This document shows positions 23,574-31,991 of a stretch of 43,749 nt of DNA, one piece after another. The DNA lies in the IMG/VR virus record IMGVR_UViG_2675903595_000011; one strand, written 5' to 3'. The DNA is from a virus. Its lineage: Duplodnaviria > Heunggongvirae > Uroviricota > Caudoviricetes. The position numbers were made by a program, and so were the translations under genes. The notes under the pieces were generated by a model. It had not been told where the DNA came from. It saw nothing but the letters and a program-made list of their open reading frames with translations, and ran no database searches. Each line of letters begins with the position of its first letter. The first letter of the stretch is position 1.

Positions 23574-24089
23574 TGCTGACCCCACAAACAGATTTCACGC
23601 TCAATCTCACGACGAGTCATGAGACCTTTCCATTGCTTACCGCCAGCATATGTCCAGCGACGTAGCTGATCACATGCGCCTTTGATATCGCCCTGGTTTA
23701 TTTTGCGAAGAAGCGTCGATGTTCTGAAATTGCCAGCACCCACGTTGTAAACGAATGAGTAAAGAGCGCCGCGCGTTGTTTCCGGTATATCGACTTTGAT
23801 GTACGGGTTAATTTGTCTGGCGACAGTGGCAAGGTCTTTATTCAAGAGTGTTTTGCATTCTGCTTTGGTATACGTTTTACCGAGCATGATGTCTTTTCCT
23901 GTATGCCCGTGACATACAGTCCATACACCAACAATATCTTTGTATGGTATGTAGCTGACACCTTCCAGACCATCGTTACCACTTGGGCCAGTGATTAACA
24001 CTGATGCTATAGCAATTGCTCCGCCNNNNNNNNNNNNNNNNNNNNNNNNNNNNNNNNNNNNNNNNNNNNNNNCGTAATGATGGAGGCAT
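23570..24089 (-). CDS. SAR endolysin (T4-lysozyme-like); N-terminal region interrupted by assembly gap
   Basis: [25 protein letters not shown]... read up to the gap; MPPSLR start found on the far side, overlapping the holin stop. Confidence 0.8.
24026..24072. other. assembly gap (47 N) in endolysin 5' region
   Basis: Run of n characters. Confidence 1.
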
Positions 24090-27442: not shown

Positions 27443-28041
27443 TACGCAAACTCCAGTAGTTGTGCGGCCACATTTTCAACTTCCTCCTGAGAGGAGAATT
27501 TACGGAACAGAATCCAGTTCCACAGCACATTCAGTACAGATTTATAAACCTGCTGAAACTCGACTTCGTCCATATTCGCAAAAGCGATGGATTTTGCCCG
27601 ACGCCCACGGCTACCGTCCGGATAAATATGCTCGGTGTAAAATCCGGCCTGAATGGTTACCCACTCGCGGAAAGCCTCAAACGACTTTAGCAACGCCGTA
27701 TCCCGGGTTCTACGAGTCGCAACGGTGTTAAGGTATTGCTCTGCGGCATCACTCAGGGCTGGCGTGTGTTCCCGACCAACTGATTCGCACAGGTAATCAA
27801 CGAAACCAGACAGCAGTTCTCGTTCGCGAGGCGTGATCGCCCCACCGACCGGAGTCCAGTAATCGAATCCCAGTTGCAGGAGTTTGAAAAAACGCTTGTG
27901 GAATGCGTAGTTACGCACACGCTTAAAGTCTGCGTGTATCCACTCACCTATTTTGATTTGATGCAGAAAATCGCAACTCTCCGGCGTCGCCGGGAGAAGT
28001 AAACCAGAAGAGGTTTGTTTGACCAGTTGTATATGCGCCAT
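27442..28041 (-). CDS. DUF1367-like nin-region protein
   Basis: 199 aa, stop/start overlap with downstream gene. Confidence 0.55.
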   Translation of the reverse strand: MAHIQLVKQTSSGLLLPATPESCDFLHQIKIGEWIHADFKRVRNYAFHKRFFKLLQLGFDYWTPVGGAITPRERELLSGFVDYLCESVGREHTPALSDAAEQYLNTVATRRTRDTALLKSFEAFREWVTIQAGFYTEHIYPDGSRGRRAKSIAFANMDEVEFQQVYKSVLNVLWNWILFRKFSSQEEVENVAAQLLEFA

Positions 28042-28321
28042 TTCTCAATCTCTCGATGGCGCAGCGCAGCAGATGCCAGTTGTTCAGGCTGACGAATAAA
28101 GTATAAATAAACTGGCTATGGTGTAAAGCCCCACATAGCATGAACAAACACTACATATCAAATAGCTGGTACAAGGATAGAAATACGACACTTATTATTA
28201 AAAACGATTAGATAAATTACATTTTAATGTTATGCAAAAGTTCTTTTTTATCATAACATTTCAATAAAAGCATTACAGATGCAATCATCCCGTCATCATC
28301 AATTATTTAAGGTGGTTAAAC

Positions 28322-28408
28322 ATGGAAAATAACAAGTTCGCACATCTCGCTCCTTTTTTATCCGTAATCCTTTTCGCTTGTTGTTTTATATGGGCATTAT
28401 TTTTATAA
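28322..28408 (+). CDS. candidate small hydrophobic protein (28 aa)
   Basis: AAGGTGG RBS 6 nt before ATG; translation MENNKFAHLAPFLSVILFACCFIWALFL. Confidence 0.3.
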   Translation: MENNKFAHLAPFLSVILFACCFIWALFL

Positions 28409-28816
28409 AGTAGCCACATGATAAGTTGCTGGAATCATATTTCCCACTCAAGTCATTAACATTTGATAAGATATATCTAAAAGGACGCCTTTACATTATT
28501 TATGCGTATATAATTTATTTATATACACAGTAAAGGTATCCTGGGAAAATATTTATCGTTAAAAAATACATCATAAATAATTAAGCTGAAATTTCAGAAC
28601 ACAACTAATACACACAATAAGGTTCAGTAACAGTAATCTATGTGGACTACATCGAGATTTTTTGATTAAACTTTAATAACTTATTCCTAACACACAGAAT
28701 GCATAAACTAAAAGTAAAACAAATAGTTATACGAAAAACAACCATATTTATTCTATCTTCTCCTCTAATCAACATATCAATTATGTGTTTCATAACAGCT
28801 TGACATAACCCTCCAA

Positions 28817-28839
28817 AAGATGCATTTTTAATGCATGTT
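28817..28839 (+). promoter_or_regulatory. NsrR-type palindromic operator candidate
   Basis: AAGATGCATTTTTAATGCATGTT: ATGCAT hexamers in inverted orientation, 5 nt apart, 15 nt upstream of the yeaR-like start. Confidence 0.5.
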
Positions 28840-28854
28840 TTGGAGGAGGTGGTT

Positions 28855-29193
28855 ATGACACACAAGAGAATTCCTAAAGATTGGGTAATCAAACGCTCAA
28901 CTCCGTTCTTCACAAAAGAGAACGTACCTTCAGCGTTATTAACACATCATAATACAGCAGCAGGTGTTTTTGGGCAGTTGTGCGTAATGGAAGGCACTGT
29001 AACATATTATGGTTTTACTGATGAGAATGCTACTGAACCGGAGATAAAAGTAGTCATTAATGCTGGCGCTTTTGCAACAAGCCCACCACAATACTGGCAC
29101 CGTGTTGAACTAAGCGATGATGCTCAGTTTAATATTAACTTTTGGGTCGCTCCAGACTTTTCGGGCGAAAAAGTCTATAGCACCAAAAAATAG
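28855..29193 (+). CDS. YeaR-like DUF1971 protein
   Basis: GGAGGAGG RBS; MTHKRIPKDWVIKRSTPFF... resembles E. coli YeaR as recalled. Confidence 0.8.
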   Translation: MTHKRIPKDWVIKRSTPFFTKENVPSALLTHHNTAAGVFGQLCVMEGTVTYYGFTDENATEPEIKVVINAGAFATSPPQYWHRVELSDDAQFNINFWVAPDFSGEKVYSTKK

Positions 29194-29221
29194 ATGATCA
29201 TATTAAAAATGCTTTAACAGT

Positions 29222-29262
29222 CAGACCCGGCAGGGCTATCCCCGACGGGTCTCATTTTTGTA
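29222..29262 (+). terminator. possible terminator after yeaR-like gene
   Basis: GACCCG...CGGGTC stem followed by TCATTTTTG; long loop, weak. Confidence 0.3.
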
Positions 29263-29813
29263 AATATATTGGTTCTACATTGACAGGAGACTTCAACCAT
29301 AAGAAGTAATCTGAATACTTGAGCAATAAATTTACTTAAGATTAATGAGCGCACCTTGCCGGACAAAGATAAACCAAGGTAACACCTTTTTTCTAGCCAG
29401 TATGTAATCAATCAGAAAGCCGCTCCATAAGAACAACAGCAAGACAATAAATTGCCATTACAGCCGCAATAGCCAGCGCACATTTGAGAACCAGCACGAC
29501 AACCCCCTGTATTAGACGCACACCAGTCCTGATAAATATGAGGCTGTCTCGTCAGTGATTCAATACAACTATTGGGTATAGTTTCTGTGATTTTATTCTG
29601 TAGAAATGGAACACAACAACCAGTCACCACCAGCACTTCCTTAAATGCTCTAAGTCAGAAACAAGCCAACATTTTAGTCCGCTTTGAGCGATCTGCAGAC
29701 ATTGCTAGCAGCCTTCTGTGTGAATTCTCAGGGAGCAGGTCGGCATAGCATCACGTTGAGGCTCTTACCCTACTTGTTCACACCAACCCTAACTCCACAG
29801 ACTGATTCATAAA

Positions 29814-30815
29814 TTAGTAATCTGCGTGTTTCGCACTTTTCAGAAATGCTTTCATATTTTCATTAGGTCGCTCAATTTCGAAGTTACTTCCATATAACTC
29901 TTGTAATTTTGGCCATAACTTACTTAATAACCCTCTCCTGCGATAAAATGGATGTATCCAAACGGTAGATAGGTACGGAGAATTTGCATTTGAATTGTTT
30001 ATTGTGACCAGCCCAACTAAACATTGTCGATAACCACTATTATCCATTGATTGTATTTCTTCGACGAATGGATACGCGATTACATCAGTCCAACCATGAT
30101 CGGTTGTATCCCATTGCATTCCGTCATGACATTCCTTCGACTGATAGCGGCGTAAAGCTACACACGCGAGCTTTTGCCAATCTGGAGAATTAATTGTGAT
30201 CTCTTCATCGTATGACGCGCCTATTGGAGCGGGTATTGGTCTGATTAATCCAGCATGGCATTCATCATAGAACTTCATGTTTCCCTCAGAAACGTTGTGT
30301 ACGTTGGGTTGCTCCATGTGTGCGCCATTCAAAAATAGCTCTGATAGTAGTGTATCTACACTGTAATCTTTATTGATTATTGTCGGCTTAGAGTTTTTCT
30401 TATTAAGGCCGCGAGTAACGATTTTTTGATCAATGTTAACAACATGGAATAATCCGTCGGGGAGGCTAGCGAACCACGATGGGGCATCGGACCAGAATAG
30501 CATGCCTTTTGTACTTCTTAAGAGTTTAATTAAGTTAATACAAGCTTCTTCACTAGTCTTGCCGTTGATGCGAAGTATGTTAGGACTAAAGTAATATTCA
30601 TCCATATCAGGGAATGCAGCTTCGCAAAACTCCTGTACATAATTTAGCACCTGGATTCTACAGAGATCATCATAGCTGGTAATAACTAAGGGGGTATCTT
30701 CATTACTATTATGATTATCAATAATGCAATCTATAGCGAGACTTACTGCTTTGCGTATCACTTCAGTTGAATCTAACGACTCTAAAAATTTTGTCTTTCG
30801 TGTGCGAATATCCAT
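29814..30815 (-). CDS. hypothetical protein, second gene of AT-rich two-gene cassette; GNAT-like motif at C-terminus
   Basis: 333 aa; ATG 15 nt after upstream stop; C-terminal ...YLSTVWIHPFYRRRGLLSKLWPKLQELYG. Confidence 0.65.
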   Translation of the reverse strand: MDIRTRKTKFLESLDSTEVIRKAVSLAIDCIIDNHNSNEDTPLVITSYDDLCRIQVLNYVQEFCEAAFPDMDEYYFSPNILRINGKTSEEACINLIKLLRSTKGMLFWSDAPSWFASLPDGLFHVVNIDQKIVTRGLNKKNSKPTIINKDYSVDTLLSELFLNGAHMEQPNVHNVSEGNMKFYDECHAGLIRPIPAPIGASYDEEITINSPDWQKLACVALRRYQSKECHDGMQWDTTDHGWTDVIAYPFVEEIQSMDNSGYRQCLVGLVTINNSNANSPYLSTVWIHPFYRRRGLLSKLWPKLQELYGSNFEIERPNENMKAFLKSAKHADY

Positions 30816-30830
30816 GTATGACCTGCGCTA

Positions 30831-31853
30831 TTAAAATTCATGAATGAACGGTTTGTCATCTGGTTGCAAAATGGTGGTTTTATTCGTTGCTACATTTAAA
30901 CTGTTGTAGAGCATAATTGCCAGGTTCGATGCATTTTCAATCAGCGTTTCAAGATCCTGGTCTGTAATCACTACGAGGTTCCCTTCTTTATCCTTTCCAC
31001 CACGATGCACTAAGTGATTTCGATTGAGGGTTGCCAATTCAATAGCTTCTATCGGACAGTCTTTTTGTACTTTTATATCGAATGTAGCTTCATAGCGGTC
31101 GATTACCTTTTTAGTGCTATGCCAGCTTGCACTGATCAAGTGTTCCTTGATTGACCTGATTAGCTCTCCCCTAATTTTCTCGATGGGTTCACCCTTGAAA
31201 GGCAACGCAGCAATATCTTTGCTTACTTTAAATTCAGTCTTACCTTTTTCTATACAATTGGCTATGTAGACATCATCTTTCTCTATAGAATTAATGAATA
31301 GCTCAACATAAAGCGTTTCCAAAGCTGTAATAACATTCGTGTAGAGCAAACTAAGCAAGTGGTTTTTTTGCTGTTGTTCAGTTTTATCTTTTGCAAGTTT
31401 TTTTATTTTATCGATATTATCAATGAATTTTAAATACGGATTACCGGAAGACGTTACAGCGTCGTAGATATCATCATCGTACCAATCATCTATATTATTT
31501 GAGTTTCCAGACCAGTCAAAACATTGTGTTTGTAATTCATCTACTAATTCCTCAATATACTCAGATTTAACATATTGACCGAAGATGGATTGTAGTTCTT
31601 CGCTCGCATCATACGGCCCGCCATATATGTAAGCATAGCCACCTTCTCTACTTTCATACGGACAAGCATTTGCCGGATCTTCAAAGTTTTCAAAGAACCA
31701 GTTTTTCATTACTTCGAGTTGATCTTTTTTGCTTATGTATTTTAAAGATTTTAGTGGAACTTTCTTTCCATTAACCTCGAAAACAATTTTCACGATGTAA
31801 CGCTCCCTTGTATCAATTGCGCAACTATTATACCACAGCGAAATACAGGGCAT
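30831..31853 (-). CDS. hypothetical protein, first gene of AT-rich two-gene cassette; C-terminal HEPN-like Rx4H motif
   Basis: AAGGAGG RBS 6 nt upstream of ATG at 31853 (MPCISLWY...); RNHLVH at codons 278-283 (about 31005..31022). Confidence 0.65.
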   Translation of the reverse strand: MPCISLWYNSCAIDTRERYIVKIVFEVNGKKVPLKSLKYISKKDQLEVMKNWFFENFEDPANACPYESREGGYAYIYGGPYDASEELQSIFGQYVKSEYIEELVDELQTQCFDWSGNSNNIDDWYDDDIYDAVTSSGNPYLKFIDNIDKIKKLAKDKTEQQQKNHLLSLLYTNVITALETLYVELFINSIEKDDVYIANCIEKGKTEFKVSKDIAALPFKGEPIEKIRGELIRSIKEHLISASWHSTKKVIDRYEATFDIKVQKDCPIEAIELATLNRNHLVHRGGKDKEGNLVVITDQDLETLIENASNLAIMLYNSLNVATNKTTILQPDDKPFIHEF

Positions 31854-31991
31854 AACCTGCCTCCTTAAACTAACATACCATGAGCCAGCAATGTCCGCTA
31901 TTGGCACAAAGCGGACAACCACGCTAGCTCTCCCCTGTGCCAGAAAAATGTCAATTTACATATGAACTAATGCTCTTTGATCTAGTAACGT

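Follow-up and report, generated by a model that had tools for sequence, protein, structure and literature searches.

We consider it highly probable that the Rac-type prophage analysed here carries a lysogenic-conversion cassette, in which an STM1808-family gene has been captured together with its own NsrR operator. Since the prophage carries this operator with the gene, the lysogen would most likely switch the gene on under nitrosative stress. The window, by which we mean the whole 43,749-nucleotide stretch of DNA that was analysed, is a fairly complete Rac prophage adjoining ttcA, which bears out the prophage-borne origin proposed for the gene in an earlier reading made without database searches (the sequence-only reading). 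The features of the cassette and its surroundings are collected in Table 1.

Table 1. Positions in the window of the cassette's features and of the sequences around them
Feature	Position	Strand	Basis
ORF-poor, AT-rich spacer (30.5% GC) travelling with the cassette	28042..28799		Conservation; breaks in the homology of relatives
TTGACA, -35 hexamer of the predicted cassette promoter	28800..28805	+	Sequence; invariance; ortholog geometry
Extended 17-3-17 palindrome around the operator, right arm ending GGAGG	28810..28846		Inverted-repeat search
NsrR-type 11-1-11 operator (predicted), AAGATGCATTT-T-TAATGCATGTT	28817..28839		PWM match, half-site identity, ortholog conservation
CATTTT, -10-like hexamer (3/6; A at position 2, T at position 6)	28823..28828	+	Geometry
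Shine-Dalgarno AGGAGGT	28844..28850	+	4 nt 5' of ATG; sequence
DUF1971 gene, STM1808-family ortholog	28855..29193	+	112 aa (stop included); Pfam, PDB, identity, dN/dS
Terminator-like hairpin AGACCCG...CGGGTCT, then CATTTTT	29223..29259	+	Fold; inverted repeat

The gene is a 112-codon frame running from an ATG at 28855 to a stop codon that ends at 29193, and the RefSeq protein (WP_000149055.1) has the same start. A longer ORF from 28831 (120 aa), which appears in some annotations, was rejected: the Shine-Dalgarno sequence precedes 28855, and the orthologs begin MSH/MTH-(L/R/K)-RIP. Pfam identifies a DUF1971 domain (PF09313, E=2.3e-26) over residues 14-94 of 112. Among solved structures the best match is 3DL3, a Vibrio 'tellurite resistance protein B' (E=3.5e-59, 201 bits), and matches are also seen to the YeaR structure 3BB6 (E=1.6e-24, 89 bits) and to the N-domain of Haemophilus influenzae TehB (3M70; E=5e-11, 46 bits). 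His32 and His82 are kept in the phage protein, in all three of these structures, and in the proteins P0014, P0019, P0006 and P0021. STM1808 is reportedly a zinc protein that requires both of these histidines. No PADLOC match was obtained for the DUF1971 protein or for two neighbouring cargo genes.

The phage protein is 79% identical over its full length to S. enterica P0014/P0019, compared with 41% identity to K-12 YeaR. A large protein search returned a close family of 111-114-aa proteins, 72-82% identical to the phage protein, from Kluyvera, Leclercia, Citrobacter, Klebsiella, Raoultella, Salmonella, Vibrio, Aliivibrio, Photobacterium and Shewanella. The S. enterica gene lies directly after dadA-ycgB-fadR-nhaB-dsbB, and the operator upstream of it is, with one serovar difference, the predicted NsrR site listed by Rodionov et al. 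2005 in their Table S4 ('STM1808 (tehB^) -49 GgTGtATaTTAAATaCATC'). Based on the two identities, the structure matches, the dsbB neighbourhood and the operator match, sequence comparison makes the phage gene the ortholog of STM1808, and YeaR a paralog. The label 'yeaR-like' given by the sequence-only reading therefore holds for the shared DUF1971 fold family, but it does not name the closest relative.

The operator was scored with a palindrome-symmetrised position weight matrix (PWM) built from 26 distinct published E. coli 11-1-11 NsrR sites (Mehta et al. 2015, Table 4, PMC5320621), with the phage operator not among the training sites. The full site, AAGATGCATTTTTAATGCATGTT (28817-28839), contains ATGCAT at 28820-28825 and at 28831-28836 with a 5-nt spacer, TTTTA, between them. 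It scores 27.2 bits against the window background and 28.2 bits against a uniform one (exact P=7e-11; ln P -23.4 to -24.0); chance matches at this score are expected 3e-6 times in the window and about 2-4x10^-4 times per 5 Mb, and the P value is still 1e-9 under the local AT-rich (28% GC) background. When ranked against the 26 published sites it is second to ytfE alone, and the leave-one-out scores of hcp, tehA and yeaR (22-25 bits) come next below it. The published NsrR cut-off corresponds to much weaker sites than this one (PMC5320621, Table 4). The runner-up 23-mer in the 43.7-kb window reaches 12.1 bits, and a degenerate pattern search of both strands of the window found the operator as its sole match, where shuffles led us to expect 0.01.

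The PWM consensus is the ytfE site, AAGATGCATTTAAAATGCATCTT, in agreement with the 11-1-11 consensus given in the sequence-only reading (PMC5320621, Table 4), and the left half of the phage site, AAGATGCATTT, is the half-site that scores highest in ytfE and hmp (PMC5320621). The phage operator lies 27 bp from the ATG; the corresponding distances for hcp, ytfE and hmp are 24-37 bp. By the matrix, the phage site is a strong predicted operator of the E. coli NsrR type, and we infer that NsrR binds it. NarL 7-2-7, FNR and IscR type-1 motifs were all absent from 28600-28870, where the best 7-2-7 match has 4 mismatches, and the ORF list contains no plus-strand ORF, and no yoaG, between the DUF1971 gene and the terminator-like hairpin. 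Control of the yeaR type by NarL is rejected on these results. The positions originally assigned to the -35 hexamer, the gene, the operator and its two inverted ATGCAT hexamers 5 nt apart were all exact, although the symmetry of the palindrome had been understated (17-3-17), and the proposed NsrR site stood out clearly in the matrix scan (27-28 bits, with the next window match at 12), so that the outcome which that reading had named as refuting it, a scan with no NsrR match above background, did not occur. Our results thus support the earlier reading, except that STM1808 replaces yeaR as the closest relative and that control by NarL is dropped.

The predicted promoter partly overlaps the operator. 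CATTTT sits 17 bp from TTGACA and occupies operator positions 7-12, inside the left half. TTGACA is invariant across 39 E. coli phage and prophage copies, and of 67 distinct orthologous loci, 64% have a TTGACA-like hexamer (at least 5/6) 16-18 bp 5' of operator positions 7-12, as against 1.2% at random positions. The ortholog promoters include TTTACA-17-TATTTT, TTGACG-17-CATATT and TTGCCT-18-TATATT, and their -10-like forms (TATTTT, TATATT, CATATT) fall on the same operator positions. From the TTGACA-17-CATTTT geometry, transcription is predicted to begin near 28835, leaving a leader of ~20 nt. The operator overlaps both the predicted -10 and the predicted +1, in a geometry that is conserved in the orthologs; an operator over the -10 and +1 is the usual layout for repression by occlusion. 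The phage -10 is weak (3/6). In the orthologs, GGAGG or GGAG stands where the phage has its Shine-Dalgarno sequence. A generic promoter scan called no plus-strand promoter for the cassette. At the other end of the gene, 30 nt past the stop codon, the hairpin at 29223-29252 and its U-run fold with -19.4 kcal/mol (z=-2.1). A simple terminator scan did not call this hairpin because its stem has an internal loop. An A-tract at 29204-29211, 5' of the hairpin, could make the terminator bidirectional.

The 300 bp upstream of every retrieved locus was also scored with the NsrR PWM. Among the enterobacterial chromosomal orthologs examined, the best operator occupies a fixed position 27-39 bp before the ATG and scores 24-31 bits. 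The Kluyvera/Leclercia group and the phage have the operator centre 27-30 bp before the ATG; for Citrobacter, Klebsiella, Raoultella and Salmonella the distance is 37-39 bp. Lower scores were found at one Leclercia locus (L011), where a 1-bp deletion in the left half leaves 12 bits in the same register, and in two Salmonella subspecies, at 20.8 and 23.8 bits. In most Vibrio, Aliivibrio and Shewanella loci, the 300 bp upstream contain no NsrR site. The Vibrio orthologs form the last cistron of norV-norW-fpr, and the norVW-linked Vibrio ortholog is listed under NorR (Rodionov et al. 2005). With an NsrR operator at the enterobacterial loci and NorR at the Vibrio loci, the STM1808 family of DUF1971 proteins is tied to an NO sensor throughout.

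At the nucleotide level, the phage locus is homologous (72-74%) to chromosomal loci of the Kluyvera/Leclercia type from 28814-28817 to 29190-29201, so that the unit held in common consists of the operator, the Shine-Dalgarno sequence and the coding sequence. As this homology spans from the left edge of the operator to the stop codon, we conclude that gene and operator were captured together. The best chromosomal match, with 82% amino-acid and 73% nucleotide identity and with dS saturated, does not single out a donor lineage. A near-consensus Fur box lies just 5' of the -35 in the Kluyvera, Leclercia and Photobacterium orthologs; the best Fur-box match in the phage copy is 11/19, which is background level.

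The gene order of the Rac prophage runs through intR-xisR-ralR-recT-recE-racC-kilR-sieB, the immunity region, ydaT-ydaU-ydaV, DUF1627, DUF977 and two hypothetical genes to the DUF1971 gene, and then continues with DUF1367, ybcO, a DUF1133/Q-like gene, the lysis genes and trkG. The early-right operon is on the minus strand and the cassette on the plus strand, so the cassette lies antisense within that operon, head-on to ydaS-ydaV...DUF1367-ybcO-Q, at a point about 1.7 kb upstream of the Q-like gene. A block made up of Q-ybcO-DUF1367, the AT-rich spacer and DUF1971 is common to all E. coli carriers, and the spacer is 94-100% conserved in every carrier. On the right, homology among carriers breaks at 29194, 29567, 29691 or 29725, with variable cargo beyond. 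DUF1367-module phages without the cassette also exist (Rac-SA53, vB_EcoS-683R6, vB_EcoS-473R12 and Rac), and the homology of such relatives ends at 28041, 28106 or 28409; three sequenced inducible phages, the vB_EcoS-666R9 group, do have it. The GC content is 41% in the DUF1971 gene (GC3 34%), 27-31% upstream and 50% in the adjacent phage genes, compared with 47-55% in the enterobacterial orthologs. The cassette is therefore moron-like in its atypical composition and its presence or absence among relatives, and it is predicted to have its own promoter and terminator.

This position raises the question of whether the operator serves the phage instead of the cargo gene, either because bound NsrR, or NO-induced convergent transcription from the cassette, modulates the early-right transcription that reaches the Q-like antiterminator, or because phage DNA, as it replicates, titrates scarce NsrR and thereby derepresses the host regulon. 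Such a role would fit a cassette that lies head-on in the early-right operon and is always linked to DUF1367-ybcO-Q. Titration of NsrR by multicopy sites is moreover an established experimental tool, having been used to find NsrR targets (Bodenmiller & Spiro 2006, as cited in PMC5320621). However, chromosomes carry the same operator-gene unit without any phage context, so that no phage-specific role is needed to account for it. Many related phages lack the cassette, and we have no evidence that NsrR blocks an elongating RNA polymerase. We therefore regard service to the phage as very improbable, and capture of a gene with its own NsrR switch as the better account.

Among 5426 complete E. coli genomes, the gene is present in 457 (about 8%), always in the Rac prophage block, and it is also found in Shigella flexneri. 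The carrier isolates come from humans, poultry, pigs and cattle, with Shigella flexneri again represented. Every E. coli copy in the complete genomes is at least 95% identical, even in a sensitive search mode, which implies that E. coli has no divergent chromosomal ortholog. The two main phage alleles differ at 12 nucleotides and 3 amino acids, giving a dN/dS of 0.08, and the ORF is full-length in 453 of the 457 carrier genomes. Operator alleles span 17.6-28.9 bits. The commonest allele, AACACGCATTTATAATGCATGTT, has a degraded left half-site and, at 20 bits, comes close to the hmp site in score. Variable columns in the E. coli copies make up 43% of the palindrome, 14% of the upstream region and 6% of the coding sequence. 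Since the commonest left half-site is degraded and the palindrome is the most variable stretch, the strength of repression probably differs among alleles.

Variation of this kind could also be expected of a silent or decaying passenger whose operator is a relic of the donor, kept quiet, for example, by H-NS silencing of the AT-rich block together with a weak -10. The 760-bp AT-rich tract upstream could attract H-NS silencing. The weak -10, the generic scan without a plus-strand promoter, the upstream GC content of 27-31%, the degraded left half-site of the commonest allele and the concentration of variability in the operator region all fit a passenger. Against this, the coding sequence is under constraint (dN/dS 0.08, with the ORF intact in nearly all carriers), the -35 is invariant, the Shine-Dalgarno sequence is preserved, all operator variants stay within the range of 17.6-28.9 bits, and the cassette is found in inducible phages. 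A passenger is, in our judgement, an unlikely explanation for a unit preserved in this way, and a cassette that works under NsrR is favoured.

The symmetry around the operator extends well beyond its 23-bp core. The arms CCTCCAAAAGATGCATT (28810-28826) and AATGCATGTTTTGGAGG (28830-28846) form a 17-3-17 palindrome with one mismatch, which is predicted to fold as RNA with -22.9 kcal/mol on the plus strand (z=-4.85) and -20.6 kcal/mol on the minus strand, z being about -5. Symmetry reaching 7-11 bp past the core is seen in the phage, the Citrobacter freundii group, S. enterica, Yokenella, C. sedlakii and some Raoultella, with flank sequences that vary by lineage around a conserved core. The flanks change in a compensatory manner, as TTTAT/ATAAA, TCTAT/ATAGA and CCTAT/ATAGG in Citrobacter and as CCTCC/GGAGG, CCTCA/TGAGG and CCATCA/TGATG in the phages, where one uncompensated intermediate was also found. 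An extension of at least 7 bp occurs in 17 of the 67 distinct loci, compared with one at most in flank shuffles, and covariation between the flanks is 0.45, as against 0.09-0.18 for slid partners. The extension is absent from Klebsiella, most Kluyvera and Leclercia, and the 666R9-type allele of the inducible phages, and in K-12 the symmetry of the ytfE, hmp, hcp and yeaR sites goes just 0-3 bp further than the core. These observations led us to reject extended flanks as a general requirement of NsrR; the extension is neither needed for NsrR nor universal.

One explanation for such a structure is that the palindrome is not an NsrR operator but acts mainly on translation, stability or transcription, either as an RNA stem-loop in antisense or read-through transcripts or as a cruciform in the DNA. 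The 17-3-17 repeat is longer than any NsrR site needs, it folds as RNA on both strands, compensatory flank changes occur in the phage, Citrobacter, Salmonella and Yokenella, and the right arm touches GGAGG. On the other hand, the 23-bp core is kept in sequence and not in pairing alone, with a match to the NsrR matrix at P of about 1e-10, and the extension is missing from the lineages named above. The cassette mRNA would not contain the left arm, because the predicted start (about 28835) lies inside the right arm, and there is no U-run after the palindrome on either strand. Sequestration of the Shine-Dalgarno sequence by the hairpin was rejected as a general mechanism, as the arm stops short of it in other genera. 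An Rfam scan of 27900-29900 gave one sub-threshold match of a miRNA model to the hairpin, at 22 bits where the gathering score is 100, which we take as chance. Control through a stem-loop or cruciform instead of NsrR therefore appears improbable.

The left flank falls in the spacer between the -35 and -10, the right flank covers the start of the leader, and constraint on both is loose. For this reason, our preferred reading is that the strong core seeded quasi-palindrome template-switch mutation and that the extension probably arose in this way, although it could be a selected hairpin or cruciform. We attach a low probability to the proposal that the extended palindrome is a selected structure and that the cassette, with a high-affinity NsrR operator and a head-on, NO-inducible promoter close to the Q-like antiterminator on its upstream side, couples the lytic programme or, by titration, the host NsrR regulon to NO.

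Taken together, the evidence suggests the following scheme for an NsrR-controlled cassette. In the lysogen, the cassette would be read from its own sigma-70 promoter (TTGACA, 17 bp, CATTTT), in the direction opposite to the early-right operon. The host [4Fe-4S] repressor NsrR, bound to the 11-1-11 operator, would cover the -10 and the predicted start and keep the gene off. Nitric oxide would nitrosylate the NsrR cluster, NsrR would leave, and a short-leader mRNA (about 20 nt) would be made. This mRNA would be translated from the strong Shine-Dalgarno sequence and would have its 3' end at the hairpin terminator about 30 nt past the stop codon. Its product, a predicted small cupin-like protein with the conserved His32 and His82, may help growth under nitrosative stress, by analogy with Salmonella STM1808. 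As E. coli has no chromosomal ortholog, this function would otherwise be absent from the species.

Such a mechanism is as expected from known biology, and its interest lies in where it is found. Few genes of the NsrR regulon are reported to affect how Salmonella grows under nitrosative stress and in mice, and STM1808 is one of them; about 8% of complete E. coli genomes have regained a gene of this type through a Rac-type prophage, with the switch intact. With this cassette, a prophage would have connected its cargo gene directly to a stress regulon of the host, and differences between strains in NO tolerance may be due in part to it. It also adds to the E. coli NsrR regulon a very strong predicted site that is invisible to studies of K-12 and CFT073. 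The literature searched on DUF1971, STM1808 and NsrR with prophages yielded no account of the Rac prophage copy and no prophage-borne, NsrR-controlled cargo gene. The parts (an NsrR-regulated family, its operator and the moron concept) are known, and it is their combination in a prophage that is new; no new mechanism is involved.

The closest known system is Salmonella STM1808, which was reportedly shown by Karlinsey et al. 2012 to be NsrR-regulated and important under nitrosative stress. The two share their ortholog group, residue numbering, an 11-1-11 operator near the ATG that overlaps a -10-like hexamer, a -35 placed 17-18 bp upstream and a monocistronic arrangement. STM1808, however, is chromosomal and stands beside dsbB, whereas the phage unit is in the Rac prophage and antisense to the early-right operon; the GC content is 52% in STM1808 and 41% in the phage gene; and the distance from operator to ATG is 39 bp in STM1808 and 27 bp in the phage, where the -35 is the consensus TTGACA. 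PMC7527575 and PMC7082413, citing Karlinsey et al. 2012, place STM1808 in the NsrR regulon and link it to virulence.

More distant parallels exist within the same fold family. The phage gene resembles E. coli yeaR-yoaG, an operon repressed by NsrR and activated by NarL, in its DUF1971 fold and in having an upstream NsrR 11-1-11 site (for yeaR, AAATGGTATTTAAAATGCAAATT, 24 bits), but differs in its 41% identity, in the lack of yoaG and of a NarL 7-2-7 site, and in an operator-to-ATG distance of 27 bp compared with about 70 bp for yeaR. The gene of the norVW-(fpr)-'tehB^' loci of Vibrio and Aliivibrio belongs to the same ortholog group (75-80% identity) and is likewise wired to an NO sensor, yet it ends a flavorubredoxin operon under the activator NorR and sigma-54 and has no NsrR site.

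As a prophage element, finally, the cassette can be compared with morons controlled by host regulators, such as the Fur-regulated stx1 and the PhoPQ-regulated sodCI of Gifsy-2. It resembles these in its predicted autonomous unit of promoter, gene and terminator, in its location in a variable lambdoid slot and in the use of a host transcription factor, in place of the phage repressor, as the predicted switch; it differs from them in that the predicted regulator is NsrR and the signal NO.

Variation among the E. coli copies of the cassette is concentrated in its operator. Across 39 copies, the palindrome (28810-28846) is a variation hotspot with 43% of its columns variable, compared with 14% in the upstream region (28605-28799) and 6% in the coding sequence (28855-29190), and the predicted -35 element is invariant over the same set. 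Scored on the weight matrix from 26 published NsrR sites, the E. coli operator alleles span 17.6 to 28.9 bits, and the strength of repression therefore probably differs from strain to strain.

In several lineages the palindrome continues for 7-11 bp past the NsrR core, both in the window and in the operators of ortholog loci L027, L030, L122, L061, L031 and L072. The sequence of these flanks differs by lineage, with compensatory double substitutions. The extension is absent from Klebsiella, from most Kluyvera and Leclercia, and from the K-12 ytfE, hmp, hcp and yeaR sites. It may have arisen by quasi-palindrome template-switch mutation, or it may be a hairpin maintained by selection.

The phage gene itself stands apart in composition, with a GC3 of 34% (28855-29190) versus 48-66% in all enterobacterial orthologs. 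Its closest match shares 82% amino-acid and 73% nucleotide identity, and dS between the phage copy and the enterobacterial orthologs is saturated. This points either to an unsampled donor or to an old capture followed by drift of the gene toward the AT-rich composition of the phage.

The features flanking the cassette, together with the Fur boxes of chromosomal orthologs, are listed below.

Coordinates of features around the cassette and at chromosomal ortholog loci (L-numbers)
Feature	Location	Strand	Remarks
AT-rich tract	28042-28799		760 bp, 30.5% GC; without convincing ORFs; co-travels with cassette
Promoter-like site	28127-28100	minus	TTTACA-16-TATACT, 10/12; directly 5' of DUF1367 gene
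Terminator-like hairpin	29204-29259		A-tract one side, U-tract other side
Two cargo genes	29814-31922	minus	variable slot
Fur box	L005 2916-2934		near-consensus match
Fur box	L026 2806-2824		near-consensus match
Fur box	L006 2918-2936		near-consensus match
Fur box	L057 2722-2740		near-consensus match

It seems likely that the AT-rich tract is an H-NS target. Since its A- and U-tracts lie on opposite sides, the hairpin could terminate transcription both ways, including early-right phage transcription without antitermination. The two cargo genes encode products of 333 aa (weak GNAT match) and 363 aa (weak HEPN/RES-NTD1 match), and are replaced by different genes in other Rac variants such as L001. 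PADLOC returned no matches for these genes, which could form an as yet uncharacterised pair with a defence or toxin role.

Elsewhere in the window, two N runs (294 bases at 2626-2919 and 47 bases at 24026-24072) represent masked or unresolved sequence. The DUF1367 gene of 'Actinobacillus pleuropneumoniae' phage vB_Apl-pPE4 (PP818812.1) shares 94% identity with its E. coli Rac counterpart. Such similarity would not be expected in a phage of the stated host, and it may indicate mis-assignment of the host or contamination.

Chromosomal orthologs of Kluyvera, Buttiauxella, Pantoea sp. IMH, Leclercia and Photobacterium carry a near-consensus Fur box directly 5' of the -35, for example GATAATGAGATTCATTATC, which agrees at 17/19 consensus positions. 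Judged from these sites, such orthologs appear to be under dual Fur and NsrR control. The box is missing from the phage copy and from the dsbB-linked loci of Citrobacter, Klebsiella and Salmonella.

Outside the enterics, this ortholog family is linked to genes for NO detoxification. In Aliivibrio fischeri (L074 10-3336), as in other Vibrio loci, its member is the final gene of a norV-norW-fpr-DUF1971 operon, an order that agrees with the 'norVW-fpr-tehB^' arrangement placed under NorR regulation by Rodionov.
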